Positions 18,168 to 50,847 of a DNA stretch of 64,000 nt are shown here, piece after piece. The stretch's first letter is position 1, and every line of letters starts with the position of its first letter. The stretch is taken from the sequence record PX068456.1; one strand, written 5' to 3'. The translations under genes and the position numbers were made by a program. The stretch is from a phage. The notes under the pieces are model-generated. The model ran no database searches, was not told the origin of the DNA, and saw only the letters and a list, made by a program, of their open reading frames with translations.

Positions 18168-18169
18168 TA

Positions 18170-18511: not shown

Positions 18512-18520
18512 GGAGGTGTT

Positions 18521-18667
18521 ATGCTTTATGTTATTTGGGTAGATGAAGGGGATGGGTTTTATATATACAAACACACTAACCATTGGCCCGATGTAGAAAA
18601 AGCACTTGCAACTTTTGAAGATTGCTTTTACGATATACATACAGACGAAGAGTATGAAGAAAATTGA
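18521..18667 (+). CDS. small hypothetical protein (48 aa, below the ORF-track cutoff)
   Basis: aggaggtgttATG, fills the gap between neighbours. Confidence 0.4.
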   Translation: MLYVIWVDEGDGFYIYKHTNHWPDVEKALATFEDCFYDIHTDEEYEEN

Positions 18668-19577: not shown

Positions 19578-19578
19578 G

Positions 19579-20511: not shown

Positions 20512-20916
20512 ATGAAACAACTTATCATTTTACGTGGTGTTTCAGGTGCAGGTAAATCTACAGTAGCAGAAATTATTTCTGAAGGTTATTGGCCTATCTG
20601 TGAGGCAGATCAATATCATTACACAGAAAGTGGTGTTTACGATTGGAAGCCAGAGAATGTAGGTAAAGCACACGCATGGTGTCAGAGTATTGTTCGTGAT
20701 GCTATGGCATCTAATATTAAAAAGATTATTGTCTCTAACACTTCAACCACAGAGAAAGAACTTAAACCTTATTTAACTCTTGCTGAAGAGTTTGGTTATC
20801 AAGTTATCTCCTTAGTTGTTGAAAATAGGCACGGTAACGACTCAATTCATGAGGTTCCACAACATATTCGTGATCAGCAAGAGAAACGTCTTCGCAGTTC
20901 ACTTAAGCTACAATAA
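20512..20916 (+). CDS. P-loop polynucleotide kinase-like protein
   Basis: N-terminus MKQLIILRGVSGAGKST resembles the T4 Pnk kinase domain. Confidence 0.6.
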   Translation: MKQLIILRGVSGAGKSTVAEIISEGYWPICEADQYHYTESGVYDWKPENVGKAHAWCQSIVRDAMASNIKKIIVSNTSTTEKELKPYLTLAEEFGYQVISLVVENRHGNDSIHEVPQHIRDQQEKRLRSSLKLQ

Positions 20917-28505: not shown

Positions 28506-29069
28506 ATGGCTAAACTTTATTTCCGATATAGTCCGATGAACAGTGGTAAAAGCACACATCTTCTACAAACAGCTTGGAACTATAAAGAAAGAAATATGAA
28601 AGTTCTTCTTTTAACTTCAGCTTTAGATACCAGATCTGGTGGTGCTATTGCTTCTAGGATAGGTATTAAAGAGGAAGCAAAACCAGTTAAAACAAAAGAA
28701 GATATGCTGGAAATTTATACACAACTTAAAGAGAATCCAGTAGATGCAGTATTTGTGGACGAATCACAATTCCTAACTAAAGATATGGTTGACATTCTTG
28801 GAGATGTGGTAGATAATTACGATATTCCTGTATTCTGTTATGGACTTAAAACAGATTTTGCTACAGAATTGTTTGAAGGTTCTGAACGGTTATTAGCCAT
28901 AGCAGATTCCATTACAGAATTGAAAAGCATTTGTAAATGTGGAAGAAAAGCTATTTTCAATGCTAGACTTATCGACTCTAAAGAACAGATTGTTATTGGA
29001 GGAGAAGACATTTACGAAACAATGTGTAGAAAATGTTATAACAGGAGAAATAATGCGTCTAGTATGTGA
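28506..29069 (+). CDS. tdk: thymidine kinase
   Basis: P-loop SPMNSGKSTHLL and C-terminal zinc-ribbon cysteines, 187 aa. Confidence 0.85.
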   Translation: MAKLYFRYSPMNSGKSTHLLQTAWNYKERNMKVLLLTSALDTRSGGAIASRIGIKEEAKPVKTKEDMLEIYTQLKENPVDAVFVDESQFLTKDMVDILGDVVDNYDIPVFCYGLKTDFATELFEGSERLLAIADSITELKSICKCGRKAIFNARLIDSKEQIVIGGEDIYETMCRKCYNRRNNASSM

Positions 29070-29652: not shown

Positions 29653-30624
29653 ATGACAAATTCTATTTCAGCAAAAATTATTGCACACTCTCAAACATCC
29701 GAAGGTAAGGATATTGTTACCTTTGAACTTGAATATCCTCGAATCATTCACTCTGAATTGATGACGCATCGTTTGTTTTCTCGTAATGCCGCATCAAGTC
29801 GAGCTATCCCTGTTAAAACTCTGATTGAAATGGTACGGCAATCTCCAGCACGTCCTTATCGTTTTGGTGCTAACCAACCAGGTATGCAAGATAAAGGCAC
29901 AGATCACGATGCCCTGATTGATGCAGGTTACACTGCAAAAGAATGGTGGGACTTGGCTGCGCTAAGTGCTGCACGTTTTGCAGAAGAGTTTGCCCTTGCT
30001 GGGTATCATAAACAGGTTGCAAACCGCCTACTAGAACCATTTCAGCGTATGAAGACTGTAGTAACCACTACAGAGCTAGAAAACTTCTTGTGGTTGCGCG
30101 TAGATGCTGATGCAGATCCTACTATTGAGGCTCTTGCTAAAGAAATTAAAAAACTGTATGAATCTTCTGAACCATATCTTCTTTTCCCAGGGGAATGGCA
30201 TACACCTTACGTTAATCGTGATCGAGATCCAGAAACTGGTATGATCCGTTATTTCTTAGGTGAAACCTTCTCCAACGAGAAAATGTTGACAGAAGATGAA
30301 GCAAAAGCTATTTCAGCTTCTTGTTGCGCTCAGGTAAGTTATCGTAAGTTGAATGATACTAAAGATAAAGCATTGGATATCTATTCTCGTTTGCTGTCTG
30401 GACAAAAGGTACATGCATCTCCGTTTGAACACCAGGCAACGCCAATGAAAGAAATGGATTTGTCAGGATTAAAACAACAGAAAGGTGGTATTAATATTCC
30501 TCCGTTCCCTTCCTCTTGGGAAGAAGGTATTACACATATGGATCGTAAACATCGTTTGTGGAGTGGAAACTTCTGTGGTTGGATTCAACATCGTCAACTT
30601 TTGACGAACCATACAAAATGGTGA
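29653..30624 (+). CDS. thyX: flavin-dependent thymidylate synthase
   Basis: ThyX signature HSELMTHRLFSRNAASSRAIP (RHR...S). Confidence 0.85.
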   Translation: MTNSISAKIIAHSQTSEGKDIVTFELEYPRIIHSELMTHRLFSRNAASSRAIPVKTLIEMVRQSPARPYRFGANQPGMQDKGTDHDALIDAGYTAKEWWDLAALSAARFAEEFALAGYHKQVANRLLEPFQRMKTVVTTTELENFLWLRVDADADPTIEALAKEIKKLYESSEPYLLFPGEWHTPYVNRDRDPETGMIRYFLGETFSNEKMLTEDEAKAISASCCAQVSYRKLNDTKDKALDIYSRLLSGQKVHASPFEHQATPMKEMDLSGLKQQKGGINIPPFPSSWEEGITHMDRKHRLWSGNFCGWIQHRQLLTNHTKW

Positions 30625-30641
30625 TCAACTTAAAATTATAG

Positions 30642-30670
30642 TTGACTTTTAATTGAGATTCGTGTAGTAT
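30642..30670 (+). promoter_or_regulatory. putative sigma70-like promoter
   Basis: TTGACT, 17-bp spacer, TAGTAT; followed by hairpin ggagagctatgctctcc. Confidence 0.4.
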
Positions 30671-30721
30671 AGGCTAACGTTAGGAGAGCTATGCTCTCCT
30701 TAAAAGAGAGAAGGAGAATTT

Positions 30722-31132
30722 ATGTCACTAATTAATACAACCATTTGGGCGACCGTAAGTATGTCTACCATTAAGGCTACACCGATCTGGAAAGAAATGA
30801 CTAAAAAGCACGGAGGAAAAATTCCTCACGAGTATCATAACACTACATTGCGAGCAGCATTAGTAATGCTTGGTATGTCTACCGATGGACATTATACAGT
30901 AGAACGTGGTGTTAATATTCGTAGTAACAACAATCGACGTGTGGTGTTTGCAAATACTACATTGTATACTTTCCCAGTTCGACAAGACTATAAATATAAG
31001 CGAATCTATCAAGGTGTAGATATTTTGCACTTTGGAGAAGAAGATTTTACAGGTTGGGGTAGCTCTCATATCAAAATGGAAGACTTCGGAAATGAACATG
31101 ATCCATCACGAGATGATGATTCTGAATTCTAA
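30722..31132 (+). CDS. hypothetical protein
   Basis: 136-aa ORF with aaggagaatttATG. Confidence 0.5.
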   Translation: MSLINTTIWATVSMSTIKATPIWKEMTKKHGGKIPHEYHNTTLRAALVMLGMSTDGHYTVERGVNIRSNNNRRVVFANTTLYTFPVRQDYKYKRIYQGVDILHFGEEDFTGWGSSHIKMEDFGNEHDPSRDDDSEF

Positions 31133-31393
31133 TTGAGAGGCCAAATGACAGAAAGTAATAAATATGAAGGCTGTGAAATTGAAGTCTATTTTGATGAAAC
31201 ATTAGGTTGCAATGTAACAGTTATCCTTGATACATCTAAAAGATTATCCCCAAAAAGACAAGAAGCAGACCGCAAAGCAAAGGCAAAAGGTTTTGAAGGT
31301 ATAGATCATTTTGAAGGTTTTCTATACGCAAATGGCTTATATAATGAGATGCGTGGCGGTTATGATGTAGATGTTCTAAACATGCACAATTAA
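31133..31393 (+). CDS. hypothetical protein
   Basis: 86-aa ORF. Confidence 0.5.
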   Translation: MRGQMTESNKYEGCEIEVYFDETLGCNVTVILDTSKRLSPKRQEADRKAKAKGFEGIDHFEGFLYANGLYNEMRGGYDVDVLNMHN

Positions 31394-31404
31394 TAGGAGA
31401 GGAA

Positions 31405-33666
31405 GTGACTCAGTATCTAAGCAAATCTATCCGTTATGTAACAAAAACAAACGGCAAGAAAGAAGAATTTAATCCAGAAAAACTTCGTAAATGGTCAGAG
31501 TTTGCTGCTGGTAAATTAAATTGGTCTGAAATTGAACTTGAAGCTGTTAAACGTTGTTACGACGGTGTGCCTACTCGTGATTTACATAAAGCTATGATAG
31601 CAGCATGTATTGATAAGAAAGATCAGGCATATAGTGATATGGCAGGTCGGTTACTTCTTGGTATGATTTATAAACAGGCTCATGGGGGATATCACAATAT
31701 CCCCTCCCTCCTGGATTTCTACAATATGTCTGTAAGTAAAGGCTATTGGGGAAAAATGGATTATACAGAAGAAGAAATTATTGAGATTGGTAAAATTGTC
31801 AATCACGATAAAAACCTAACTTATGGTTATTCCGTACTGCGCCAGATGGTTGATAAGTATCTTGTGAAAGATGCGATCAATGATGTTGTTTTTGAATCAC
31901 CACAGTTTTTATTCATTGGTGTAGCAATGAAGGTAATGGAAATCCAACCAAAAGATCGCAGAGTAGAAGACATTAAACGTCTATATACCTACGTAAGTGA
32001 TCTTAAGATTAATTTACCATCGCCTTATTTAACAACTTTGCGTACTAAGATTAAAGGTAGTGCTTCTTGTTGTCTGTTTAGAGCAGATGATACAGCAGAA
32101 TCTTTAGCAATTGCTAACTATCTTGCGCATGAATATACATTGAATAATGCAGGTATTGGTGTTAACCTCCAAACCCGTGCTACAGGACAAGGTGTTAAGA
32201 ACAACCGTATCGTTCACGGTGGTCTTTTACCATATCTGAAATGGATGGAAACAAGTGTTGGAGCATCAAAACAAGCAAGTCGTGGTGGAAGTGCAACAGT
32301 AACGTTCACAATATTAGAACCTGATTTTGAAGATCTGGTACGTTTGAAAAACCCAACTACTGTTAGTGAAAAACGAGTAGATAAACTTGATTACTCTATC
32401 GTAGTAAACAATGCTTTCCTGCGCCGTGCAGCAAAAGGTAAAGATTGGATGCTAGTTAGTTATGACGAAGCACCAGAACTCTATGAGGCGCTTTATAAAA
32501 GCGAGGAAGAGTTTGAAGAAGTATATGAAAAAGTTAGTCGCAAACGAATTAAGAAAAAGTTTGTAAAAGCACGAGATCTTCTGGCAGAAATTATTACACA
32601 AAGAGCAGAGACAGGACGTATTTATATGTTCTTTGCGGATAATGCTAATAAGCATACTCCGTTTAAGGATGTTATTTATCAGTCAAACTTGTGCCAAGAA
32701 ATTTTCTTACCTACGAAAGCATTTCACAATATGACTGATCTTTTCACAGGTGAGAATACAGAAGATCAAGAATTGGCATTATGCTTCCTGTCTTCTATTG
32801 TAGCTGGTCGTGTTACACCAGAAGAATATGAAGATGTTGCATATTATACAGTTCTAACTATTGATAATGTTATTGAAACAATGCAGTATCCGTTTAAACA
32901 TAACGAAATAACTGCTAAAGCACGTAGGTCTATCGGTGTAGGTATTACAAACCTTGCACATTATCTGGCAAGTAATTTTGTTACTTATTCAGATCCTTAC
33001 GGCAAAAAACTAATTCACGAATTAGCAGAAAGGCATTATTACTGGTTAGCAAGAGCTTCTCTTCGTTTGGCAAAAGAGAAGGGTAATGCAGAATGGATGC
33101 ATAAAACCAAATGGCCTGAAGGATGGTTGCCTATTGACACCTACGCTAAAGCTGTAGACGATATTGGCAATTTTAAACTTAAAATGGATTGGGAAGGTTT
33201 ACGACAAGATATCATTGCACAAGGCGGTATCCGAAATAGTGTATTAGCAGCTATTGCTCCGAATGAGTCCAGTAGTCTTGTAAGTAATACGACTAACTCT
33301 GTGTATCCTGTACGTGATACTATAGTTTATAAACAAAGCCAAAAAGGTAATGTCCTGTTTATTGTGCCAGACTATGATAAACTAAAAGATATTTACCAAT
33401 CGGCTTGGGATACGCCAGATAAAGATATGGCTGAAGCATATGGATTATTGACTAAATTCTTAGATCAAGGTGCATCATGTGATAAGTGGATTGACTATTC
33501 TAAGATGGAAGGTGGTCGTTTATCCATTAAATCAGAAATGCAATATATCCTTCAGTTTGCAAAACTTGGTGGTAAATCTTTGTACTATCTAAATAGTAGA
33601 ACAAAATCGGCAACCTCACTCGCTCAAGAAGATGAAGAATCTGGTTGTGAGGCTTGTAAGATGTAA
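31405..33666 (+). CDS. nrdA: ribonucleoside-diphosphate reductase alpha subunit (class I)
   Basis: GTG start after aggagagg; 753 aa with ATP-cone N-terminus and C-terminal CEACKM tail. Confidence 0.9.
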   Translation: MTQYLSKSIRYVTKTNGKKEEFNPEKLRKWSEFAAGKLNWSEIELEAVKRCYDGVPTRDLHKAMIAACIDKKDQAYSDMAGRLLLGMIYKQAHGGYHNIPSLLDFYNMSVSKGYWGKMDYTEEEIIEIGKIVNHDKNLTYGYSVLRQMVDKYLVKDAINDVVFESPQFLFIGVAMKVMEIQPKDRRVEDIKRLYTYVSDLKINLPSPYLTTLRTKIKGSASCCLFRADDTAESLAIANYLAHEYTLNNAGIGVNLQTRATGQGVKNNRIVHGGLLPYLKWMETSVGASKQASRGGSATVTFTILEPDFEDLVRLKNPTTVSEKRVDKLDYSIVVNNAFLRRAAKGKDWMLVSYDEAPELYEALYKSEEEFEEVYEKVSRKRIKKKFVKARDLLAEIITQRAETGRIYMFFADNANKHTPFKDVIYQSNLCQEIFLPTKAFHNMTDLFTGENTEDQELALCFLSSIVAGRVTPEEYEDVAYYTVLTIDNVIETMQYPFKHNEITAKARRSIGVGITNLAHYLASNFVTYSDPYGKKLIHELAERHYYWLARASLRLAKEKGNAEWMHKTKWPEGWLPIDTYAKAVDDIGNFKLKMDWEGLRQDIIAQGGIRNSVLAAIAPNESSSLVSNTTNSVYPVRDTIVYKQSQKGNVLFIVPDYDKLKDIYQSAWDTPDKDMAEAYGLLTKFLDQGASCDKWIDYSKMEGGRLSIKSEMQYILQFAKLGGKSLYYLNSRTKSATSLAQEDEESGCEACKM

Positions 33667-33671
33667 TGAAA

Positions 33672-33696
33672 CTAGGGGGCTTTGTCCCCCTTTCTT
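33672..33696 (+). terminator. hairpin terminator or attenuator between nrdA and nrdB
   Basis: gggggctttgtccccc followed by ttt. Confidence 0.5.
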
Positions 33697-33706
33697 AAGG
33701 AGGAAT

Positions 33707-34042
33707 ATGCCTACATTAGTTGTATTACCTGGGGCAACACCACAAAGACGTTGGGGAAATTATACACTGGTAGATAGTAAAGATTTTACATTCGATTGGT
33801 GTTGCCATTATATTGCAGGTTTTCAATTTTCCAGTGTTGAAATATGGGCTTCCAATGATCCAGAAGCTACCTGGTATGCTTTAACCAGGGCAAGATATGA
33901 TGGAGAGGTTACTGTACTACTCACAAAGAGTGTATGGAACGCATTAGAGAAGGCTTACATAGAGAATGGTATGGAGAGAAAACACATTGATACAATAAAA
34001 GCAATGTGTGATATTGTGGAGGATTTAAATGGCAGCAATTAA
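33707..34042 (+). CDS. hypothetical protein between nrdA and nrdB
   Basis: start set to the ATG after aaggagg (MPTLVVLPG...). Confidence 0.5.
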   Translation: MPTLVVLPGATPQRRWGNYTLVDSKDFTFDWCCHYIAGFQFSSVEIWASNDPEATWYALTRARYDGEVTVLLTKSVWNALEKAYIENGMERKHIDTIKAMCDIVEDLNGSN

Positions 34043-35114
34043 TTTATACAACGACACTTACAAAGAAGGTTTCTATCCTGTATTTTTGGGAGAACAGTTA
34101 GGTATTTTTGATTCTATTAATGTAACATACCCAGAAATGCATCGTCTGTATAAACTACAAAAACAGCAAGATTGGGATGAAAACGAAGTAGACTTAGATC
34201 AGACACGAAAAGATTTCGTAGCTTGTTCTAAAAGCAACTACGATGTTATGATCAAAAACCTATCTTTCCAATGGGAAAATGATTCACTTGCTAAATCAAT
34301 TATCACTTTGTTTGCACCATTTTTAAGCAACAACGAAGCATGTGCAATGATGATGAAGCAATCAGAAATGGAAGTTTTACACGCTTTGACATATTCTGAA
34401 ATTATTCGTCAGTGTATCCCTAATCCAAATGAAGTTATCGATCAGATTATGGAGAACGAAAGAATCTTCCAGAGGATGGGTATAGTTGAAGAGGTAATGA
34501 GTGATCTGGCAGAGGCAGGACATAAATATGCTCTAGGTCTGATCGAGAAGGATGATAACCTTCGTCTACTGATCCTGAAAGGAATGATTGCACTTATCGG
34601 TCTGGAAGGCATTCAATTCATATCCTCTTTTGCTGCAACATTTGCCTTAGCAGAGCAGCAACTGTTTGTAGGTGCAGCTAAACTCATTCAAAAAATTATG
34701 TTGGATGAACTATTGCACGTTAAAATGGATTATGCTATTATTGATGCACTGCTGAAAGATCCTGTTTGGAGAAAAGTATACGAAGATAATATCGACGTTC
34801 TGACAGAAATTCTTGACACGGTAGTTGGACAAGAGGAAGATTGGTGTGACTATCTGTTTAGTGAAGGAAGGGTTATCGTTGGTGGTAACGCAGAGTTGTT
34901 CAAACTTTGGGTTTACTTTAATGCTGCACCTATCTATCGCAGACTGAAAATGAAACACAAATTCCGTGCACCGAAGAAAAGTCCACTGCCTTGGATGGAT
35001 GTTTGGTTAAATCCAGATCAAATTCAAGCAGCAGCACAGGAGATCCAAATTACAGCTTACAAACTGAATTCAGCAAATAAAGATGTAAGTGATGACGAGG
35101 AGTTAGACTTTTAA
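34029..35114 (+). CDS. nrdB: ribonucleoside-diphosphate reductase beta subunit
   Basis: 361 aa, ferritin-like di-iron ligand pattern, follows nrdA. Confidence 0.85.
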   Translation: MAAINLYNDTYKEGFYPVFLGEQLGIFDSINVTYPEMHRLYKLQKQQDWDENEVDLDQTRKDFVACSKSNYDVMIKNLSFQWENDSLAKSIITLFAPFLSNNEACAMMMKQSEMEVLHALTYSEIIRQCIPNPNEVIDQIMENERIFQRMGIVEEVMSDLAEAGHKYALGLIEKDDNLRLLILKGMIALIGLEGIQFISSFAATFALAEQQLFVGAAKLIQKIMLDELLHVKMDYAIIDALLKDPVWRKVYEDNIDVLTEILDTVVGQEEDWCDYLFSEGRVIVGGNAELFKLWVYFNAAPIYRRLKMKHKFRAPKKSPLPWMDVWLNPDQIQAAAQEIQITAYKLNSANKDVSDDEELDF

Positions 35115-35332
35115 TGAAACTACTTTGTGTTGGATTAATTTCTGACTTCAAAGACGTTTTCGAAAAGGGAGCCTCTTACGAGGCTTCCGAATTACAGAAT
35201 GGTTTCTGTGATGTTTACGGGAAACGTTTAAAAAAGAATGGTGATCATTGGCTAGGAGTTATGTCTTGCGGTCATATTATAGTTAATGGTGTAGCCAAGT
35301 TTGAAATTATCAAAGGAGAAAAAGATGATTGA
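35114..35332 (+). CDS. hypothetical protein
   Basis: 72-aa ORF, ATGA overlap with nrdB. Confidence 0.45.
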   Translation: MKLLCVGLISDFKDVFEKGASYEASELQNGFCDVYGKRLKKNGDHWLGVMSCGHIIVNGVAKFEIIKGEKDD

Positions 35333-35507
35333 TTTTGCTGATGTAGATATTAATTCTGACTTAACAGAAGATGAAGGTGGCGCTTTTGTGTGTTCAGATG
35401 GAGAAAAATGTTTTACTCTGATGGTAGAAACTTATGATGGTATCACAGAAATTCTGTTAACAGAGAATGAGTTAAAACAGATGTTAGAAAAGATTGAGGA
35501 GCTTTAA
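35325..35507 (+). CDS. hypothetical acidic protein
   Basis: start at the ATG after aaggagaaaaag. Confidence 0.45.
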   Translation: MIDFADVDINSDLTEDEGGAFVCSDGEKCFTLMVETYDGITEILLTENELKQMLEKIEEL

Positions 35508-35509
35508 TA

Positions 35510-35656
35510 ATGGATGATGTAAGTATTTGTCCTGTCTGTGGTGGCACTGGGAATTTTATTGTTAGTATGGAACAATTTATTCCTTGTTGGAATTGTAACG
35601 GTTTAGGTTTCGTTCATACGGAAGAAAAAGAAGAGGAGGAAGATAATGGGAACTAA
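35510..35656 (+). CDS. small CxxC...CxxC zinc-ribbon protein (48 aa, not in the ORF track)
   Basis: MDDVSICPVCGG...CWNCNG; overlaps the next ORF by 11 nt. Confidence 0.35.
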   Translation: MDDVSICPVCGGTGNFIVSMEQFIPCWNCNGLGFVHTEEKEEEEDNGN

Positions 35657-35972
35657 TATTGAATGGCGTATGTTACAGGGTGCGCCTTTTAATAAATGGG
35701 AAGAGGCTGTAGGAGAAGATCCTAGAATTGAAGAAGAATTTGATGGAGATTTTAACTGGTTCTTACAAGAAGGTCTTGATTTAAGTCGTATCTCTCCTTT
35801 CTATGACGCTGATGCATCTTATTGCATATATGGGATTTATTTAAAAGGTGGCGAAGGAAGTGTAGCTGTAGATCTTGAGCAACTAAATAAGAATGCAAAA
35901 GAAGTCTATGCACAACTTCTTGAAAAATATAACATTGAAACGGAAACTATTATTTCTCAACACGTTTGGTAA
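35646..35972 (+). CDS. hypothetical protein
   Basis: 108-aa ORF. Confidence 0.45.
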   Translation: MGTNIEWRMLQGAPFNKWEEAVGEDPRIEEEFDGDFNWFLQEGLDLSRISPFYDADASYCIYGIYLKGGEGSVAVDLEQLNKNAKEVYAQLLEKYNIETETIISQHVW

Positions 35973-35985
35973 GGAGGATAGTAGA

Positions 35986-36183
35986 ATGATGCTAGATCAA
36001 CTGATCAATGCTCCTCGCGTAACAGTAAGTCCAAAAACATTTGCATCACTTTTAGAAGATGCTAAAGAGGTTTATAACTTTACTGAAGAAGAGCTTCCTG
36101 TTCCTGTTGAAAAAGGTTCCAGATGGTTGTTTTATGAAGGTATTATTTTTACCGAAGGGAATAATTGGAAGGAGACTAAATGA
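35986..36183 (+). CDS. hypothetical protein
   Basis: start at the ATG after aaggagg (MMLDQLINAP...). Confidence 0.45.
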   Translation: MMLDQLINAPRVTVSPKTFASLLEDAKEVYNFTEEELPVPVEKGSRWLFYEGIIFTEGNNWKETK

Positions 36184-37169
36184 AATACTTAGTAACAGGT
36201 GGTTTAGGCTTTATTGGAAGTGCGGTAGTTCGTTTCCTGGCTAAAAATACTAAGAATGATATTTACGTTATAGATAAATGGGGTTACGCTTCAGATCCTA
36301 GAAATTTATCAGAAACACCCAATGTAAAGTTTTGTCGTGTTGACTTGACAAATGCGCAGTTAACTGCTAAGATTGTGGCAGATGTTAATCCAGATTATAT
36401 AATGCATCTTGCAGCAGAAAGTCACGTAGATAATTCAATAGCATCACCGAGTGTTTTTATAAATTCAAATATTGTTGGGACATTTAATCTCCTAGAAGCT
36501 GTTCGTTTAATGGGAGATAAATCAAATCTTAAAATGTTCCATCATATTTCAACAGATGAAGTATATGGTGATATGGAAGAAGGGGATTATCCGTTTACAG
36601 AACAGAATCCTTATAAGCCAAGTAGTCCATATGCTGCATCTAAGGCAGCAAGCGATCATTTGGTAAGAGCGTGGCATCGTACTTATGGTATTCCGACAGT
36701 TATAACAAATTGTTCAAATAATTTTGGAGCATATCATCATCCAGAAAAACTAATACCTAAAACGATAACAAATATCTTGATGCATAAACCAATCCCTGTT
36801 TATGGTAATGGTCTTCAAGTAAGAGACTGGTTATACGTTGACGATCACGCAGAAGCATTACACCTAGTAGTAACTAAAGGCAAATCTGGAGAAACATATA
36901 ATATTGGGAGCAGAAACCCTAGAACTAATATTGATGTAATCTATATGATTTGTGATTATATGGATGCGGTGTATCCATCTGAAACAGATGCTTGTAGCCT
37001 CATTGAGATGGTTACAGATAGACCTGGGCATGATTTAAGATACGAAGTGAATCCTTATAAGATTGAAAAGGAATTAGGGTGGAAAGCTAAAGGCACATTT
37101 GAAGAAAAACTTTATTCAACCATTGATTGGTATGTAGATAACAAAGAGTGGTGGGAAAATAAAGTTTAA
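36180..37169 (+). CDS. rmlB: dTDP-glucose 4,6-dehydratase
   Basis: N-terminal [10 protein letters not shown] Rossmann motif and YAASKAASD active-site motif. Confidence 0.85.
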
Positions 37170-37177
37170 GGAGGAGT

Positions 37178-38047
37178 ATGAAAGGTATTATCTTAGCAGG
37201 TGGTAGTGGAACAAGACTTTACCCAGTTACTAAAGGGGTTAGTAAACAACTATTACCAATTTACGATAAACCTATGATTTATTATCCACTCTCTGTCCTA
37301 ATGCTTTCTGGAATTAGGGAAATACTAATAATTACAACACCAGAAGATCAAATTAATTTTGTAAATCTTCTAGGTGATGGTTCTTCTTTTGGTATTTCCC
37401 TACAGTATGCAATACAAGAAAGCCCGAAAGGTTTAGCAGAAGCGTTTATTATTGGTGAGAGCTTTATTGGCGAAGATTCTGTAGCACTTGTGCTAGGTGA
37501 TAATTTATTCTTTGGTCAGAGTTTTGGTAGCATTTTAGATTCTGCTAAAGAACATATTGAAAAGAATGGTGGAGCTAATATTTTTGGGTATCACGTAAAT
37601 GATCCTGAAAGATTTGGTGTTGTTGAGTTTGATTCTGAAGGTACAGTGGTGAGTATTGAAGAAAAACCAAAAACACCAAAAAGCAACTATGCAGTTACAG
37701 GCTTGTACTTTTACGATAATTCTGTTATACAGAAAGCTAAGAGCGTTAAACCTTCTGCTAGAGGGGAGTTAGAGATTACAGATATAAATGAGATGTACTG
37801 GAAAGAAAAGACTTTACGTGTCTGTAAACTAGGAAGAGGTTTCACTTGGCTGGATACAGGAACACATGAAAGTCTTATGGAAGCATCTCAATTTGTTCAT
37901 GCAATAGAAAAGCAACAAGGTATGAAGGTTGCATGCCTAGAAGAGATTGCTTTTAAAAATGAATGGATTACTTTAGACTCTGTAAAAAGTTCTGGAGAGG
38001 TTTTAAGTAAAACAGACTACGGTAAGTATTTACTTAAATTAAAATAA
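37178..38047 (+). CDS. rmlA: glucose-1-phosphate thymidylyltransferase
   Basis: N-terminal [16 protein letters not shown] signature. Confidence 0.9.
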
Positions 38048-38059
38048 AGGGGGAATTAA

Positions 38060-38614
38060 ATGATTCAAGCAACAAAAATCGAAGATTTGTTGATCATTCA
38101 ACCTGACGTTTACGGAGATGAACGTGGCTTTTTCTTAGAAAGTTTTAATCAGGCTTTATATGATCAATACATAGGTAAACAAAACTTTGTCCAGGATAAC
38201 CACTCACGTTCTATTCGAGGAGTTCTACGTGGGCTTCATTTTCAAAAGAAAAACCCACAAGGGAAGTTAGTACGTTGTGTTCGTGGTGAAGTTTATGATG
38301 TTGCTGTAGATATTAGGGTTGGTAGTCCAACATTTGGAGAATGGGTAGGTGTTCTCTTATCTGAAAAGAATAAAACACAATTTTGGATTCCTCCTGGTTT
38401 CGCTCATGGCTTTGTTGTGATTAGCGACATTGCTGATTTTGAATATAAATGTACAGAATATTACGATCCGACTTCAGAGTGTAGTCTTGCGTGGAATGAT
38501 CCAGATATCAATATAGATTGGGGTTTTGATTTAATCTTTAATGATATTAATTTTAAACCTATCTTGTCACAAAAAGATCAGCAAGCCAAAACACTAAAGG
38601 AGATCATATTTTGA
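38060..38614 (+). CDS. rmlC: dTDP-4-dehydrorhamnose 3,5-epimerase
   Basis: 184-aa cupin with RGFFLESF and RGLHFQ motifs. Confidence 0.8.
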   Translation: MIQATKIEDLLIIQPDVYGDERGFFLESFNQALYDQYIGKQNFVQDNHSRSIRGVLRGLHFQKKNPQGKLVRCVRGEVYDVAVDIRVGSPTFGEWVGVLLSEKNKTQFWIPPGFAHGFVVISDIADFEYKCTEYYDPTSECSLAWNDPDINIDWGFDLIFNDINFKPILSQKDQQAKTLKEIIF

Positions 38615-39441
38615 CAAAATTTTTAATCTTTGGTTCAAAAGGTCAATTAGGACAGTCTTTGGCAAAAGTTGCGCCCGAAGATGTTATTTTGATTGAAGCA
38701 AGTGATGTAGACATTACCAACTTTAAAGATGTTATGAATAGTCTTGTACAGCATGTGCCTGATGTTGTTGTGAATTGTGCGGCTTACACGGCAGTAGATA
38801 AAGCTGAAGAAGATGTTAACACCTGTATAAATGTTAATGCATACGGTGCAACAAACATTGCCAAAGCATGTAATGATTTACTGATACAGTTTGTACATAT
38901 TTCAACAGACTATGTTTTTGATGGGCATGTTGCTGGCACAGAAGAGAGTAAAACAAACCCCTTGAACACCTACGGTTACAGTAAACAATTAGGTGAAACT
39001 TTAGTACAAACAGTTTGTCCTACAGCACTTATTATCAGAACAGCTTCTGTTTATAGTGAGTTTGGACATAACTTTTTGAAAACTATGTTGGAACGCTACA
39101 ACGGTGGTCAAAAAGAATTTAATGTAGTATGTGATCATTTATCATGTCCTACTTATGCACCTGATCTTGCAGAAACAATTTTTAAACTTGTAAAAGATGG
39201 TGTAAATAGTAAAATTGTACACTATGCAGGTGCAGATTATATTTCTTGGTATGATTTTGCACGAAAGATATTTCTTGTTATAGATTTATCTGTTACAGTT
39301 AATCCTGTATCTGCTTCAACCTATAATTCCAAAGCAGTCAGACCAGCAACATCTTATTTAAAAACAGATCCTACTTTAAATCCGCGAAGTGTTGATAGCG
39401 GTATTGTAAGAACTTTAACTATACTTTTAAACAAGGAGTGA
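38611..39441 (+). CDS. rmlD: dTDP-4-dehydrorhamnose reductase
   Basis: 276 aa, N-terminal FGSKGQLGQ Rossmann motif; last gene of the rml operon. Confidence 0.7.
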   Translation: MTKFLIFGSKGQLGQSLAKVAPEDVILIEASDVDITNFKDVMNSLVQHVPDVVVNCAAYTAVDKAEEDVNTCINVNAYGATNIAKACNDLLIQFVHISTDYVFDGHVAGTEESKTNPLNTYGYSKQLGETLVQTVCPTALIIRTASVYSEFGHNFLKTMLERYNGGQKEFNVVCDHLSCPTYAPDLAETIFKLVKDGVNSKIVHYAGADYISWYDFARKIFLVIDLSVTVNPVSASTYNSKAVRPATSYLKTDPTLNPRSVDSGIVRTLTILLNKE

Positions 39442-39704
39442 AAATGAATTTTATTATCTACGGTAAACCAAATTGTCCTTTCTGCACTAACGCTAAGACT
39501 CTACTGGAACAGCGTGAACAGGATTTTAAATATCTTACCTTAGATGAAGACTATTCTTTAGATCAGATTCAGAATCTGGTTTTAGAGAAAACAGGTGTTC
39601 TGCCACGTACCTTTCCTCAAATTTTTGTGGAAGATGGTGAACATCTAACCCACGTAGGAGGTTTTTCTGAACTACGTGAATTCATGGCTCAGATTGCGGA
39701 GTAA
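39438..39704 (+). CDS. glutaredoxin / NrdH-like redoxin
   Basis: 88 aa with CPFC active site near the N-terminus. Confidence 0.8.
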   Translation: MKMNFIIYGKPNCPFCTNAKTLLEQREQDFKYLTLDEDYSLDQIQNLVLEKTGVLPRTFPQIFVEDGEHLTHVGGFSELREFMAQIAE

Positions 39705-39708
39705 CAAT

Positions 39709-39852
39709 ATGAAAGGTAAACAGAAACGTAAGATCTTTTCTCGTGCTTTGGCAACAGAGCTTAAGTCCCAAACTAAAAAGACGAAGCCTAAACGTGAAAT
39801 GTCTCCTGAACACCTACTGTTTCAAGAGCTAGATCATGGGGAGGGCGACTAA
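39709..39852 (+). CDS. small basic protein (47 aa, not in the ORF track)
   Basis: Lys/Arg-rich ORF filling the gap before the lysozyme gene. Confidence 0.3.
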   Translation: MKGKQKRKIFSRALATELKSQTKKTKPKREMSPEHLLFQELDHGEGD

Positions 39853-39864
39853 TATAAGGAAAAC

Positions 39865-40365
39865 ATGGCTAAAGTAGTTGATGTGTTTGATATGTTACGT
39901 TTTGATGAAGGACTAAAGCTAACTGTATACACTGATACCGAAGGGTATTGGACGGTTGGTATTGGACACCTTCTGACAAAACTTAAAGATAAATCAGAAG
40001 CTATACGCATTCTTGATAACTTAGTAGGTAGAAAAACTAATGGGGTTATTACTGAAGCGGAAGCTAGAAAAATCTTTGAGGGTGACGTAAAGAAAGCGAT
40101 ACAACAAATCCATTCAAGTACCATATTATCTCCTATTTACGATAAAGTAAGTCCTAATCGTAAAATGGCTATTATCAATATGGTATTTCAAATGGGGTTG
40201 AAAGGTGCAGAATCTTTCAAAAATAGCTTGACTTTAGTGAGTAATTCATATTATACTCAAGCCTCTATAAATTTACGTAAAAGTAAATGGTATCGCCAAA
40301 CGCCTAATCGCGCAGAGCGTGTAATTCAGGTGCTTAAAACTGGAACATTAGACGCTTATAACTAA
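39865..40365 (+). CDS. endolysin, T4-type lysozyme (GH24)
   Basis: N-terminus MLRFDEGLKLTVYTDTEGYWTVGIGHLLTK matches the T4 lysozyme catalytic region (Glu, Asp, Thr). Confidence 0.85.
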   Translation: MAKVVDVFDMLRFDEGLKLTVYTDTEGYWTVGIGHLLTKLKDKSEAIRILDNLVGRKTNGVITEAEARKIFEGDVKKAIQQIHSSTILSPIYDKVSPNRKMAIINMVFQMGLKGAESFKNSLTLVSNSYYTQASINLRKSKWYRQTPNRAERVIQVLKTGTLDAYN

Positions 40366-40367
40366 AC

Positions 40368-40390
40368 AAAGGGGCGAAAGCCCCTTTTAT
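40368..40390 (+). terminator. rho-independent terminator
   Basis: ggggcgaaagcccc hairpin plus ttttat. Confidence 0.6.
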
Positions 40391-40403
40391 AAGGAGTGCA
40401 AAC

Positions 40404-41156
40404 ATGGGAAATAAAACCGCAAAGGCTCGTCGTCAATCAGCAGCCAATGATGACAAACGTGCCAGTCGTTATGCGGCTAAAGCAGTAGGAAATGATGATT
40501 ACCGTCTTGATGAATTTACCCCTGTTGGGAATCAAGAAGCTATTGTAAGAAGCATGGTTTGGAATGATTTAACCATTGTTAATGCCCCAGCAGGAACAGG
40601 AAAAACGACAACAGCACTATGGAAAGCATTGCAAATGCTTAAAGCTGGTGACTTCAGAAAGTTGATTTTCCTTAAAAACCCGACAGAAGTAGGTGATGAC
40701 CAAATCGGTTTCTTATCTGGAGATAAGACTGATAAACTAGCAGCACACTACGAGTCAACTAAAAGAATTTTCCAACAGTTTATGACTGCAAATAAATTGG
40801 AAAACGATATTGCAAGTGGCAAAATTGAACTTAATATTCCAAACTATGCACTAGGTGCTACGTGGGATAACAGCATTATTCTTATTGATGAAGTTCAACT
40901 TATGTCACCAAACACAGTAAAACTTCTCCTTGAGCGAGCAGGTCTTAATACACGAATTGTCATTATGGGTGATGTTAATCAAACATATGCAATTAAACGA
41001 AGAGCTAACGGGTTAGGTGATTTGTTAGATCGTGTTGTTCCTATTAACGAAGAAGGAGAAAGGGAAGCTATTGTAGATTTTATTGGTTATGTTGAAATGA
41101 CAACTGCTGATAACCAACGTTCCCGTTTGTCTCAGTTCATCACGGAAGTATATTAA
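40404..41156 (+). CDS. phoH: PhoH-like ATPase
   Basis: Walker A NAPAGTGKTT, 250 aa. Confidence 0.8.
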   Translation: MGNKTAKARRQSAANDDKRASRYAAKAVGNDDYRLDEFTPVGNQEAIVRSMVWNDLTIVNAPAGTGKTTTALWKALQMLKAGDFRKLIFLKNPTEVGDDQIGFLSGDKTDKLAAHYESTKRIFQQFMTANKLENDIASGKIELNIPNYALGATWDNSIILIDEVQLMSPNTVKLLLERAGLNTRIVIMGDVNQTYAIKRRANGLGDLLDRVVPINEEGEREAIVDFIGYVEMTTADNQRSRLSQFITEVY

Positions 41157-41192
41157 TAATTACAAGGCAAGGATGCCTGTTATGGAGGTTAA

Positions 41193-41687
41193 ATGACGCT
41201 AATTGAGATTGATCGCAATGGTATTGATGAATGCTATCAAGCTGGCTTAGTTAAGCCGAATGAGTTTAGACAGATTTATATTGACAAGATTGAAAAAGAA
41301 ATATCTCTTCGTTTAGAGAACATGACAACTTTGCAAAAAGTTCAGATGTTTTTTAGTTGGTTAAAAGGAGAGGATTGGCTAACTAAATATTACCAGGAAT
41401 TATCTGATAGTCAAGAAGGCTTGTTTGAGTGTATAATAAATGTAGCCGGATCTAATTCAGAATTACTCCTGATTGATGAAGAAGATTCTAAACTTCTTTT
41501 TCTTAGCAGTATCTTTCACAAGAAGTCTATGTTAGTAAGAAATTGCAGTGATTTACTAAATCATCCACTAACAAGAACTAATAAAATTCTTGTGGATAAA
41601 GAAACACTAAGAGCTATTGATTACCTACGTAAGTATGTAAGCGGTGGTAAAGCAGTCCTTAAAACACTACAGGAGGAAGTACAATGA
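41193..41687 (+). CDS. hypothetical protein upstream of the HslV-like gene
   Basis: 164-aa ORF, ATGA overlap with the next gene. Confidence 0.5.
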   Translation: MTLIEIDRNGIDECYQAGLVKPNEFRQIYIDKIEKEISLRLENMTTLQKVQMFFSWLKGEDWLTKYYQELSDSQEGLFECIINVAGSNSELLLIDEEDSKLLFLSSIFHKKSMLVRNCSDLLNHPLTRTNKILVDKETLRAIDYLRKYVSGGKAVLKTLQEEVQ

Positions 41688-48099: not shown

Positions 48100-48513
48100 A
48101 TGTATTATAGTGACTATTTTGTAAACCCAACAAAAGAACAACTTCAATCAGCAGTGGATAAGATGCAGATTGTAGTTAAAGAATGTGAGAAAATAAGAAA
48201 ACAACTACAAGAAGAGACTGTTGTTGTTAGTAAATGGTTTGGTCTTAGAAAGAAGGTTGTTAGTAAACACAATATCATCCTTGAAAAAGCAAAAGCGACA
48301 GGAACTAGTTACGCCTTACAAGGCTTGTTGCTAAATTACATTGATATAGAACAACATTCTCTTCTGCACTGTTGGCTTCACAGTCCTAGTATTGAGGATC
48401 TCTTGTTTTGGTTATCGTGTGAATCTGTACTTTTAAATGAAAATGAGGCTTACCGTTTAAACTTCTGCCTTAAGGCAGAATTACCAGCTAGTGTTAAGGA
48501 GAAGAAGCAATAA
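48100..48513 (+). CDS. hypothetical protein
   Basis: 137-aa ORF after agaggagattagcATG. Confidence 0.5.
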   Translation: MYYSDYFVNPTKEQLQSAVDKMQIVVKECEKIRKQLQEETVVVSKWFGLRKKVVSKHNIILEKAKATGTSYALQGLLLNYIDIEQHSLLHCWLHSPSIEDLLFWLSCESVLLNENEAYRLNFCLKAELPASVKEKKQ

Positions 48514-49502
48514 TGAAAGTTTTAAGTCTTTTTGATGGTATGTCAGGAGGAATGCTTGCACTAAAAAGTGCAGGTATTGAAGTAGATAAGTATTATGCCT
48601 CAGAATTGGACAAATTTGCCATAGCTGAAAGCCAAGCCAATTTTCCAGACATTATTCAATTAGGGGATGTTACAAAATGGAGAGAATGGGATATCCCGTG
48701 GGGAGAAATTGATCTTTTGTTAGGTGGTAGCCCGTGCCAAGGCTTCTCTTCTTCTGGTAAGGGTTTGAACTTTCAAGATCCGCGATCTAAACTGTTCTTT
48801 GAATATGTTGAAATTCTTGAACATATTAAAAAGTTTAACCCTAATGTTAAGTTCATGCTTGAAAACGTTAAGATGAAGGTGGAGTGGGAAAACGTGATCA
48901 CAAGTTACTTAGGTGTTGATCCCGTATTCATTAACTCCGCAGATTTCACGGCACAGAATAGACAACGTTTATACTGGTGCAATTGGGAAATAAAGCCTTG
49001 GGATATTACCAATGAAGTGTTGCAAGATATCATTGAAGATGATAGTATCGTAGACAGAGATAAGGCTTATTGCATAGATGCAAATTATGCCAAAGGTGGT
49101 AATATAGAACAGTATTTTGAAAAGAGTCGCAGACAACTGGTTTTTTATCCAGCAGCAATATATGGGCGTAGAATTAATGAAAATGGCAAACGTAGTACAT
49201 CTAAAACTGATCGTTTGGTACATTGCTTGGAAGTTCAGGACAGTGAAAAAACTCGTTGCCTCACGACTGTGCCGAAAGACGTACTATTAGCTTACATTCC
49301 ACCTGGAAGATATCTGGATGCCTTTGAAAAATTGAGTGAAGGTGTGCATTATAGAAAGTTAACGGTTAAAGAGTGTTGCCGCTTACAAGGTGTTCCAGAT
49401 GATTACTTTAAAGTGAGTAGTAACACACAAGCATATAAGATGTTAGGTAATGGTTGGACTATACCTGTCATTGCACATATTCTTAAGTGTATGGAGGAAT
49501 GA
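48513..49502 (+). CDS. DNA (cytosine-5) methyltransferase
   Basis: motif I FDGMSGG, motif IV GGSPCQGFS, motif VI ENV. Confidence 0.9.
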   Translation: MKVLSLFDGMSGGMLALKSAGIEVDKYYASELDKFAIAESQANFPDIIQLGDVTKWREWDIPWGEIDLLLGGSPCQGFSSSGKGLNFQDPRSKLFFEYVEILEHIKKFNPNVKFMLENVKMKVEWENVITSYLGVDPVFINSADFTAQNRQRLYWCNWEIKPWDITNEVLQDIIEDDSIVDRDKAYCIDANYAKGGNIEQYFEKSRRQLVFYPAAIYGRRINENGKRSTSKTDRLVHCLEVQDSEKTRCLTTVPKDVLLAYIPPGRYLDAFEKLSEGVHYRKLTVKECCRLQGVPDDYFKVSSNTQAYKMLGNGWTIPVIAHILKCMEE

Positions 49503-50292: not shown

Positions 50293-50847
50293 ATGGGTTT
50301 TGATGATATGTTATTATATGAGGAGGCTTGTGTGAAAGAAGCTATGGCTTTACCAGTTTTATCTATTGATATTACAACAGTAGACACTTTTTCAGATTGT
50401 GAAACGTGTGGATCGTATTCATCTATTGTACATGAAGTCAGTGGGGATTTAGGCACTTACGAAGATGGAGATTATGCAAGTTGTTTAGGTGATAATCGAG
50501 ATGGTGAAGTGGCGAATGTTGCAAACTGGATTGCTTCTAAGTTAAAAGAAAGAAATCGTCCGTTCCCTAATCTTCTTACACCAGAAGCTATGCTTAAAGC
50601 TGAAGAAGAGATGTATGATTATGGTGATAAAGTAGCTCATGATTACAATGATCCTAATTATAAAAAATTGAGTGATAAGTATTGGGAACTAGCTAATGCT
50701 TATGATAAATACTACTCTACAGAAAACATTGTTAAATTGTTTTTAGATTTTGGAGTAGAAATTAATTGGGATTTCGAAGAGGAAGAGCGTTACGACGCAT
50801 CTTCTTGGGATGATGATTACGAAGAGGATATTGAATGCGAAGAGTAA
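50293..50847 (+). CDS. highly acidic hypothetical protein
   Basis: start at the ATG after ggagga; Asp/Glu-rich throughout. Confidence 0.5.
   Translation: MGFDDMLLYEEACVKEAMALPVLSIDITTVDTFSDCETCGSYSSIVHEVSGDLGTYEDGDYASCLGDNRDGEVANVANWIASKLKERNRPFPNLLTPEAMLKAEEEMYDYGDKVAHDYNDPNYKKLSDKYWELANAYDKYYSTENIVKLFLDFGVEINWDFEEEERYDASSWDDDYEEDIECEE

Follow-up and report, generated by a model that had tools for sequence, protein, structure and literature searches.

A predicted dTDP-L-rhamnose operon in phi92-like coliphages and the glycosyltransferases that may use its product

Why a phage genome should carry all the genes required to make an activated sugar is the question raised by the four consecutive genes located at positions 36180-39441 of the 64,000-nucleotide stretch of phage DNA analyzed here (record PX068456.1; this stretch is called the window below). 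The sequence-only reading of the window had assigned these genes to rmlB, rmlA, rmlC, and rmlD, and had proposed that their product might serve to glycosylate the phage DNA, the virion proteins, or the surface polysaccharides of the host.

The four ORFs were found at exactly these positions on the plus strand, and the identity of their products was tested against the NCBIfam equivalog cut-offs, all of which were exceeded. The rmlB gene (36180..37169, plus strand) encodes a dTDP-glucose 4,6-dehydratase of 329 aa (TIGR01181, 441.7 bits versus a cut-off of 365.1), rmlA (37178..38047, plus strand) a glucose-1-phosphate thymidylyltransferase of 289 aa (TIGR01207, 473.6 bits versus 360.65), and rmlC (38060..38614, plus strand) a dTDP-4-dehydrorhamnose 3,5-epimerase of 184 aa (TIGR01221, 260.4 bits versus 155.75). 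The rmlD gene (38611..39441, plus strand), which starts with a TTG codon and overlaps rmlC by 4 nt, encodes a dTDP-4-dehydrorhamnose reductase of 276 aa (TIGR01214, 253.9 bits versus 224.05).

The catalytic motifs of the solved enzymes are conserved in the amino acid sequences. RmlB is closest among the solved structures to the Salmonella RmlB 1g1a (E=1e-116), with which it aligns over its full length (residues 1-327 with 1-343); a segment of 17 residues and the YAASK sequence are conserved between the two proteins, and the GxxGxxG motif by which SDR enzymes bind NAD, the catalytic Thr-Asp-Glu residues, and the YxxxK element are all present. In the case of RmlA, the nearest solved structure is the Salmonella RmlA 1iim (E=4e-125), with which a segment of 19 residues and the WLDTGTH sequence are shared, including the GGxGTRL signature and the sugar-phosphate-binding motif. 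The YAASKAASD sequence of RmlB and the 16-residue stretch of RmlA on which the first assignment was based were both recovered. RmlC is closest to the Salmonella RmlC 1dzr (E=6e-64) and shares with it the catalytic residues of the cupin active site, namely the histidine in RGLHFQ, the lysine in QGKLVRC, and the tyrosine in FEYK; its C-terminus carries a Lys-Asp pair in SQKDQQ, the equivalent of Asp170 lying outside the part shown in the alignment with 1dzr. The nearest solved structures to RmlD are those of Bacillus anthracis (3sc6, E=5e-44) and 1vl0, the Salmonella enzyme 1kbz giving E=3e-35, and the GSKGQLG, ISTDYVFDG, and YGYSK sequences, which contain the glycine motif and the Thr/YxxxK triad, align with 3sc6 and 1vl0. 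Taken together, the rmlBACD genes make up a complete and intact predicted pathway leading from glucose-1-phosphate and dTTP to dTDP-L-rhamnose. The second RmlC-like gene annotated as rfbC-2 in the related phage phiWec187 is a pipeline label only, as one copy per genome was obtained using tblastn.

The operon is embedded in a nucleotide-metabolism module. The upstream part of this module includes tdk (28506-29069, 240.7 bits versus a cut-off of 195), nrdA (31405-33666), and nrdB (34029-35114), as previously proposed, whereas the gene taken to be thyX (29653-30624) encodes only a divergent ThyX-like protein, scoring 35.8 bits versus an equivalog cut-off of 87.9 and 32.8 bits with the Pfam Thy1 profile. 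Downstream, a glutaredoxin-family gene with a CPFC motif (39438..39704, plus strand; GRX_bact E=1.4e-14, below the NCBIfam cut-off) overlaps the stop codon of rmlD by 4 nt. This gene adjoins the operon in all the relatives, and occupies the same position in phAPEC8 and KP2025; it is a syntenic neighbor, and is not shown to be a member of the sugar pathway. A palindromic GC-rich hairpin located after the lysozyme gene (40368..40387), identified by a consensus match only, might possibly mark the end of the transcription unit containing rmlBACD. It provides weak evidence of such an end, since the promoter-like and terminator-like matches in the 30500-41500 region were not more numerous than expected in shuffled sequence.

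The window comes from a Justusliebigvirus (phi92-like) coliphage, and this region shows 95-99.5% nucleotide identity with 56 deposited records. There is no novelty in the operon: it has already been annotated and discussed in print (Olsen 2020, PMC7552041; Maffei 2021, PMC8594841), and the window adds a further isolate to a genus already described. The feature is identical in phi92, phAPEC8, and other Stephanstirmvirinae, and the same synteny is observed in Phapecoctavirus, without any substantive difference. The BME3 paper makes no mention of rml or glycosyltransferase genes. The idea that this is an unusual cargo for a phage was borne out, as RmlC is present in only 170 of 50,697 records, about 132 of which belong to Stephanstirmvirinae, and at least one of the matches outside this subfamily is a mislabelled bacterial contig. 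This is the case of "Acinetobacter phage MD-2021a," which seemed to carry rmlBDAC with adjacent glycosyltransferases and to be an independent phage example, but is actually a contig of a bacterial chromosome.

The same four enzyme families and the same catalytic motifs occur in the bacterial rmlBDAC/rfbBDAC clusters (Salmonella enterica LT2 and E. coli O-antigen). However, the order of the phage genes is B-A-C-D instead of B-D-A-C, the operon DNA is only about 65% identical to any E. coli copy (rfb or rff), and the O-antigen transferases, flippase, and polymerase that accompany the bacterial genes are not adjacent to the phage operon. The phage RmlD is nearer to the Firmicutes-type enzymes, whereas RmlB, RmlA, and RmlC are nearest to those of Salmonella. 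The gene order nrdA-x-nrdB-small ORFs-rmlBACD-grx-x-lysozyme-phoH is shared with phAPEC8, the identity of the Rml proteins with those of phAPEC8 (53-72% at the amino acid level) is comparable to that of the products of the neighboring genes (54-86%), and the GC3 of the rml genes (0.20-0.25) is similar to that of their neighbors. In the comparison with phiWec187, 36 of the codon differences in the operon are synonymous and 10 nonsynonymous. Judging from these sequence comparisons, rmlBACD is an old operon, vertically inherited in the Stephanstirmvirinae (phi92-like and phAPEC8-like phages) under purifying selection, and not a recent capture from a host.

The acceptor had been regarded as unknown for want of a glycosyltransferase (GT). 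The absence of GTs holds for the whole 64-kb window, in which none was detected by performing a Pfam scan on every ORF of at least 100 aa, but not for the genome. In phiWec187, a relative showing 97.5% identity, four adjacent GT genes are present outside the region corresponding to the window, at positions 104319-107495, about 72 kb from the rml operon. Their products match PHROG families annotated as glycosyltransferase (E 3e-79 to 3e-149), and one of them also exceeds the Pfam Glyco_trans_1_2 threshold (26.0 bits versus 25); in phi92 and other records these genes are already annotated as glycosyltransferases. The cluster is composed of two GT4-type GT-B paralogs, one GT2-type GT-A, and one small GT, and the AlphaFold models of the GTs have pLDDT values of 93.6 and 88.3. 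The rml operon and the GT cluster are both near-universal in Stephanstirmvirinae (about 128-137 records, versus about 134 records of the subfamily) and both absent from more distant relatives: neither was found in Vequintavirinae on the basis of the tblastn record counts and the data of Olsen 2020 (PMC7552041). Of these genes, the Klebsiella-infecting relatives have no more than rmlCD and two GTs. Co-occurrence in a single vertically inherited lineage is in itself weak evidence of a functional link, and a distance of 72 kb separates the two loci.

Donor genes and transferases are also associated in distant phages. An RmlB-like 4,6-dehydratase gene lies within the GT cluster of one phage contig (L009), and GT-B homologs are paired with nucleotide-sugar enzymes in another (L011) and in the Streptomyces phage KimJongPhill. 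In the latter phage and in two further contigs (L012 and L013), the GT homologs are located directly upstream of the genes for the terminase, the portal, and the capsid, and a Burkholderia GT homolog is located after an intimin/invasin adhesin gene. The GT-A also shows distant homology with proteins in 66 Mycobacterium phage records (about 25-29% identity, E 5e-8 to 2e-6), including the N-terminal part of gp98 of the Cheoctovirus Pacc40 (about 26% identity, E about 5e-8), and the Pacc40 match is situated close to the 3' end of the genome. This is also where the GTs implicated in the cluster-F mycobacteriophages Che8 and Rita are said to sit (PMC11256854, citing Freeman 2023), away from the structural genes as in the present phages, and glycans have been reported on the major capsid protein of Che8, which belongs to the same genus, Cheoctovirus.

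The distribution of the rml genes can be accounted for in terms of what the hosts supply. As far as is known, the enterobacterial hosts all make dTDP-glucose and dTDP-4-keto-6-deoxyglucose via RffH and RffG for the synthesis of the enterobacterial common antigen (ECA), whereas RmlC and RmlD are present in only some O-types. As evidence of this host supply, at least one match to the search query was obtained in 5,426 of the 5,426 complete E. coli genomes. The fact that the Klebsiella relatives keep only rmlCD can be explained on these lines, since the upstream dTDP-sugars are provided by the host. RmlB, RmlA, RmlC, and RmlD would convert glucose-1-phosphate and dTTP into dTDP-L-rhamnose, the phage-made donor would be guaranteed in any host whatever its serotype, and the cluster consisting of two GT-B, one GT-A, and one small GT would consume it, placing rhamnose on a protein or glycan acceptor, most plausibly on virion proteins. 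We consider it probable that the operon makes the donor supply independent of the host serotype, which would also explain the rmlCD-only lineage, and that the dTDP-rhamnose is used by the phage's own four GTs. The nature of the acceptor can be proposed more tentatively, at somewhat below even probability: instead of bulk phage DNA, it might be a protein or a glycan, the virion proteins being the most plausible candidates by analogy with the cluster-F mycobacteriophages. Considered as a whole, the explanation combining a donor pathway, dedicated GTs, and a non-DNA acceptor is slightly favored. The more specific idea that rmlBACD and the four-enzyme GT cluster build a rhamnose-containing glycan on the phage's own virion proteins is a possible one, to which we give roughly one chance in three. 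The GT cluster forms part of the replication module, and the rml operon is embedded among nucleotide-metabolism genes; this placement counts against a non-DNA acceptor. The literature searched yielded no experiments on glycans of the virion, the DNA, or the host for these phages.

DNA glycosylation was proposed for this operon by Olsen 2020, based on the placement of the genes (PMC7552041), and this hypothesis has been repeated elsewhere (PMC10844046). The phage GTs would in this case put the rhamnose on a modified base, in the same way as the glucosyl-hydroxymethylcytosine of T4 is formed, perhaps in a motif-restricted manner. The position of rmlBACD among nrdAB, tdk, the ThyX-like gene, and the glutaredoxin gene is in line with this idea, as are the primase-helicase and DNA polymerase genes abutting the GT cluster, and a C5-cytosine DNA methyltransferase encoded at positions 48513-49502 could in principle mark sites. 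Sixteen of the 17 members of the GT-A family gave weak matches with the TAGT profile (best E=1.5e-4), and the GT-A weakly matched the PHROG of the beta-glucosyl-HMC-alpha-glucosyltransferase (E=5e-5); however, the TAGT matches are below the Pfam threshold and cover about 55 residues around the DxD region, which generic GT2/GT7 profiles match too. A location of GT-A and GT-B enzymes near DNA-metabolism genes and weak profile matches are features shared with the T-even HMC glucosylation and TAGT systems, but the donor here would be a dTDP-deoxyhexose instead of UDP-glucose. The search recommended at the outset for GTs and DNA-modifying enzymes in the rest of the genome yielded the four GTs and DNA methyltransferases: in the ORFs of at least 100 aa in the window and the rest of phiWec187, no Pfam match (E<=0.01) with a ThyA-family dNMP hydroxymethylase or a TET/JBP dioxygenase was obtained, the same scan giving only the divergent ThyX-like protein and the methyltransferases. 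In the list of structural neighbors of the GT-B, the T4 alpha- and beta-glucosyltransferases come only in 17th and 34th place, and homologous GT-A/GT-B pairs adjoin the packaging genes on phage contigs of about 28-36 kb. Maffei 2021 reported an exceptional sensitivity of the phi92-like phages to restriction-modification (RM) systems of types I, II, and III (PMC8594841). Since these phages are reported to be RM-sensitive and neither a hydroxymethylase nor a TET/JBP enzyme was found, DNA is the least favored of the three uses originally suggested, and we regard its glycosylation as quite unlikely, whereas the virion proteins have some comparative support and a host surface glycan is possible. 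A rarer alternative may be a motif-restricted rhamnosylated base conferring no protection from the restriction enzymes tried so far.

The use of dTDP-rhamnose by the phage GTs to alter or cap glycans of the infected cell (undecaprenyl-linked intermediates, LPS, or exopolysaccharide) seems unlikely, although a little less so than DNA glycosylation; superinfection could thus be blocked, or the progeny could be kept from adsorbing to infected cells and debris. The top structural neighbors of both GTs include enzymes acting on lipid-linked or cell-wall glycans, namely PglA/PglH (WlaC), WbnH, WaaG, PimA, TarM, TarP/TarS, and the Listeria RmlT. Rhamnose is typically encountered in O-antigens, and RmlA, RmlB, and RmlC have the Salmonella O-antigen enzymes as their closest solved relatives. 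On the other hand, these phages are virulent and the seroconverting systems known to us are those of temperate phages. In addition, no flippase, polymerase, ligase, or GtrA/GtrB/GtrC-type protein was found in the genome using Pfam, the families searched for in the ORFs of at least 100 aa in the window and the rest of phiWec187 including those of the GtrA flippase, the GtrB bactoprenol glucosyltransferase, and GtrC, and self-modification agrees better with the presence of GT pairs beside the structural genes of small phages. Surface glycans are recognized by these phages (PMC8594841, PMC11990801). The idea that RmlC and RmlD might divert dTDP-4-keto-6-deoxyglucose from ECA, the supposed receptor, has lost support because the receptor has been re-assigned from ECA to the NGR glycan (PMC11990801). 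A metabolic role, in which the pathway would manipulate the dTTP/dTDP-sugar pool or the GTs would glycosylate a small metabolite such as the product of the neighboring Ter-associated cluster, is very improbable in our opinion. It is in keeping with the location of the operon in a nucleotide-metabolism module and with that of the relatives' GT cluster just downstream of the TelA, TerC, vWA-TerF-like, ComF-like phosphoribosyltransferase, and HAD phosphatase genes, and the structural neighbors of the GT-B include the small-molecule GTs BshA, tetrahydrobiopterin glucosyltransferase, AviGT4, and LmbT. However, it would be counter-intuitive for a phage equipped with tdk, nrdAB, and a ThyX-like enzyme to have a dTTP sink, no conservation of the Ter genes beside the GT homologs is seen at the distant loci, and we know of no precedent for a role of this kind. 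The Klebsiella lineage, by keeping rmlC and rmlD alone, also argues against it, as this suggests that what matters is the end product dTDP-L-rhamnose itself.

About 7 kb of the genome is spent on the rhamnose donor pathway and the four transferases, and since purifying selection maintains this investment, its product must be important to the phage. The phi92-like and phAPEC8-like phages, which are candidates for use in therapy and biocontrol, have host ranges that are among the broadest of all coliphages. The assumption that DNA is modified is repeated in the literature, and a glycan on the virion or the host, if it exists, would change current views about immunogenicity, stability, and interactions with the host. 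If the glycan is carried by the virion, it would have a bearing on the stability, the immune recognition, and the unusually wide host range of this group used in therapy, and would represent, as far as we know, the first case of a glycosylated virion among phages infecting Gram-negative bacteria. The structural neighbors of the GT-A include A64R of the chlorovirus PBCV-1 and R699/R655 of mimivirus; giant viruses of this kind likewise synthesize their own activated sugars and encode their own transferases, although their hosts are eukaryotic, and the UDP-L-rhamnose of mimivirus is made by a different, two-enzyme route.

The genes rmlB (36180-37169, 329 aa), rmlA (37178-38047, 289 aa), rmlC (38060-38614, 184 aa) and rmlD (38611-39441, 276 aa, TTG start) all lie on the plus strand, separated by gaps of 8 and 12 nt and then by a 4-nt overlap. 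The NCBIfam equivalog cut-off was exceeded by all four proteins: 441.7 bits as against 365.1 for RmlB (TIGR01181), 473.6 against 360.65 for RmlA (TIGR01207), 260.4 against 155.75 for RmlC (TIGR01221), and 253.9 against 224.05 for RmlD (TIGR01214). In comparison with the Salmonella enzymes, RmlB (1g1a, E=1e-116) and RmlA (1iim, E=4e-125) keep their motifs and RmlC (1dzr, E=6e-64) its His, Lys and Tyr residues, while RmlD keeps ISTDYVFDG and YGYSK in comparison with Bacillus anthracis 3sc6 (E=5e-44). Judging from these alignments, all four proteins retain intact catalytic and cofactor motifs. The motifs and coordinates put forward in the sequence-only reading match these ORFs exactly, and the operon was rightly flagged as unusual phage cargo, RmlC homologs being present in just 170 of 50,697 phage records.

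Among the neighbors named in that reading, nrdA, nrdB, tdk (28506-29069, profile match) and a glutaredoxin-family ORF (39438-39704, +, profile match) are present, but the supposed thyX (29653-30624, +, 323 aa) is only a divergent ThyX-like gene, which scores 35.8 bits against the TIGR02170 equivalog cut-off of 87.9. The match is confined to profile positions 60-206 and the RHR motif reads THR; it is perhaps not a standard thymidylate synthase. The phAPEC8 annotation gives this gene as common to rV5 and PVP-SE1, which means that it extends beyond the rml-bearing lineage. A small gene between nrdA and nrdB (33632-34042, +, 136 aa), the start of which overlaps the end of nrdA, gave no family match when one was looked for. 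Close relatives differ in the length of this gene: UAB_1 has 657 bp, phiWec187 336 bp, phAPEC8 408 bp and KP2025 330 bp.

The rml region shows 95-99.5% identity to its counterparts in 56 deposited phage genomes, among which Salmonella phage UAB_1 (Justusliebigvirus, Stephanstirmvirinae, phi92 group) matches best, and the window corresponds to positions 4073-67981 of phiWec187 (LC739536), reverse strand, at about 97.5% identity. Most of these 56 records already annotate the operon, which has also been discussed in print; it is therefore real but not new, being known and published for a phage genus that has been sampled well. Olsen et al., who described it, speculated that it rhamnosylates hydroxymethylated nucleotides (PMC7552041); Maffei et al. 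(2021) found the phages "exceptionally susceptible" to RM "despite ... a putative dTDP glycosylation machinery" (PMC8594841); and a 2024 paper plainly mentions "rhamnose modification in Stephanstirmvirinae phages" (PMC10844046). A literature search for experiments on the fate of the phage rhamnose found none. Four "Campylobacter phage" records (A150, A145, C3 and A110a; MG065639, MG065645, MG065656 and MG065689) share about 99% identity with Justusliebigvirus phages of E. coli, which makes their host label doubtful. Contig 3 of "Acinetobacter phage MD-2021a" (CAKLQF020000003) was rejected as a phage, being bacterial chromosome with glnE, ilvE and aspS as well as rmlBDAC within an LOS locus.

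About 132 of the 170 records with RmlC homologs belong to Stephanstirmvirinae. The gene order in phAPEC8 is identical (nrdA-x-nrdB-small ORFs-rmlB-A-C-D-grx-x-lysozyme-phoH), and the Rml proteins of the two phages share 53-72% amino-acid identity, with 54-86% for the flanking genes. The four rml genes differ from those of phiWec187 by 36 synonymous and 10 nonsynonymous codons, and their GC3 (0.20-0.25) is similar to that of the flanking genes. Among 5,426 complete genomes, the closest E. coli DNA shows about 65% identity to the rml query, with the order B-D-A-C. By these comparative measures, the operon is ancient in Stephanstirmvirinae, vertically inherited and kept by selection, and not a recent capture.

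All ORFs of at least 100 aa in the window and in the rest of the phiWec187 genome, taken as concatenated chunks, were scanned with Pfam. The earlier statement that no glycosyltransferase (GT) lies nearby holds for the window, where none was detected among these ORFs, but the apparent lack arises because the window boundary excludes four adjacent GT genes, located in phiWec187 directly beside the primase-helicase gene: GTB1 (104319-105263; phrog_7162), which passes the Pfam Glyco_trans_1_2 threshold (26.0 bits vs 25), its paralog GTB2 (105275-106249; phrog_7162; 133 of 314 residues identical), GT-A (106236-106922; phrog_2456), which has a DDD motif, and a small GT (106932-107495; phrog_14179). 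All four carry the PHROG label "glycosyltransferase" (E 3e-79 to 3e-149), AlphaFold models confirm the predicted GT folds, and the genes were previously so labelled in the phi92 RefSeq and several other records. A conserved phrog_4240 ORF of 83-89 aa (L006, a stretch of phiWec187, 4050-4319, -) always lies between a GT-B gene and the primase-helicase; homologs occur in three further phage loci (L007, L009 and L010), and the position is kept even at a GT-B identity of 39-66%. Upstream of the cluster, relatives carry TelA, TerC, vWA-TerF-like, ComF-like phosphoribosyltransferase (PRTase_3) and HAD phosphatase genes and an anaerobic NrdD in two ORFs split by an HNH endonuclease gene (L006 8244-21843, record 108244-121843, outside the window).

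The dTDP-rhamnose made by the rmlBACD products probably feeds the phage's own transferases, a reasonable reading based on indirect evidence. In about 134 records with a primase-helicase at least 60% identical, RmlC occurs in about 132 and GT-B and GT-A in 128-137, while more distant relatives have neither RmlC nor GT-B/GT-A. The distant phage contig L009 shows the order small GT, RmlB-like 4,6-dehydratase-family gene, GT-A, GT-B, small ORF, primase-helicase; in another phage locus (L011), an epimerase/dehydratase, a radical-SAM enzyme and a DegT aminotransferase accompany the GT-B and GT2 genes; and in Streptomyces phage KimJongPhill a GT-B homolog sits with a UDP-glucose dehydrogenase and a methyltransferase. 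In the Klebsiella-infecting phages KP2025, phi1_175008, FKP3 and KP13-26, only rmlC and rmlD are found at the syntenic site, and this lineage with its shortened sugar pathway also has fewer transferases (the small GT and one GT-B). It is established for ECA biosynthesis that every enterobacterial host has RffH/RffG, paralogs of RmlA/RmlB; every complete E. coli genome (n=5,426) matched the rml query. Since the hosts supply RffH/RffG, RmlC and RmlD would be the steps that a phage has to provide itself if it is to make dTDP-L-rhamnose whatever the host; RmlA and RmlB would contribute added flux, and the rmlCD-only variant argues that the phage's need is for the end product dTDP-L-rhamnose itself.

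As to the acceptor, we tentatively favor a virion or other protein, virion proteins being the most plausible. GT homologs lie directly upstream of terminase, portal and capsid genes in two phage loci (L012 and L013) and KimJongPhill; distant GT-A homologs, Pacc40 gp98 (Cheoctovirus) among them, occur in 66 records of Mycobacterium phages, and the major capsid protein of Che8, another Cheoctovirus, is reported to bear glycans (PMC11256854). In the one bacterial context examined, the GT homolog comes after an intimin/invasin adhesin gene. A host envelope glycan is a less likely acceptor: in its favor, many of the GTs' structural neighbors act on lipid-linked or wall glycans, but the phage is virulent, and no flippase, polymerase or Gtr protein was found by Pfam among ORFs of at least 100 aa.

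Phage DNA seems somewhat less likely again, even though the operon and the GT cluster both sit among DNA-metabolism genes, the window encodes a C5-cytosine DNA methyltransferase (48513-49502, +; TIGR00675, 140 bits), and 16 of 17 GT-A family members weakly match the TET-associated glycosyltransferase profile, all below threshold and over about 55 residues each. The published RM sensitivity (PMC8594841) argues against bulk DNA modification, as does the mid-ranking position of the T4 alpha- and beta-glucosyltransferases among the structural neighbors. The search suggested earlier for GTs and DNA-modifying enzymes in the remaining genome yielded the four GTs. No ThyA-type hydroxymethylase or TET/JBP dioxygenase was found by Pfam among ORFs of at least 100 aa in the window and the phiWec187 remainder, which also speaks against bulk modification. 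A small molecule or other acceptor is improbable. The comparative evidence shifts the balance away from the DNA hypothesis repeated in the literature.

Three genes downstream of the methyltransferase lies a Sir2-family gene (50835-51647, +; Pfam SIR2 E=7e-21); the intervening and flanking ORFs belong to PHROGs without functional annotation. A NadV-type nicotinamide/nicotinate phosphoribosyltransferase gene (13436-15169, -; Pfam NAPRTase E=2e-37) adjoins one encoding a phosphoribosyl-transferase/PRPP-synthetase-like protein (15241-16134, -), and the pair looks like an NAD+ salvage module, of a kind proposed to counter NAD-depleting defence systems. The plus-strand stretch 18137-20916 is likely an RNA-repair module, encoding a cyclic-phosphate-processing receiver domain protein (18137-18511; cREC_REC E=1.5e-12), a metallophosphoesterase (19026-19577), an RNA ligase (19579-20511, so annotated in UAB_1) and an AAA_33 kinase-like protein (20512-20916). 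In phiWec187, a UvrD-type helicase carries an intein (Pfam Intein_splicing, Hint; L006 25803-28577, record 125803-128577), and the DNA_pol_A match of the 1182-aa family-A DNA polymerase (from 48220 in the preceding stretch, L005, to L006 1768; record 98220-101768) is limited to residues 498-627; by eye, the long insert inside this polymerase looks like an intein or homing-endonuclease insertion.
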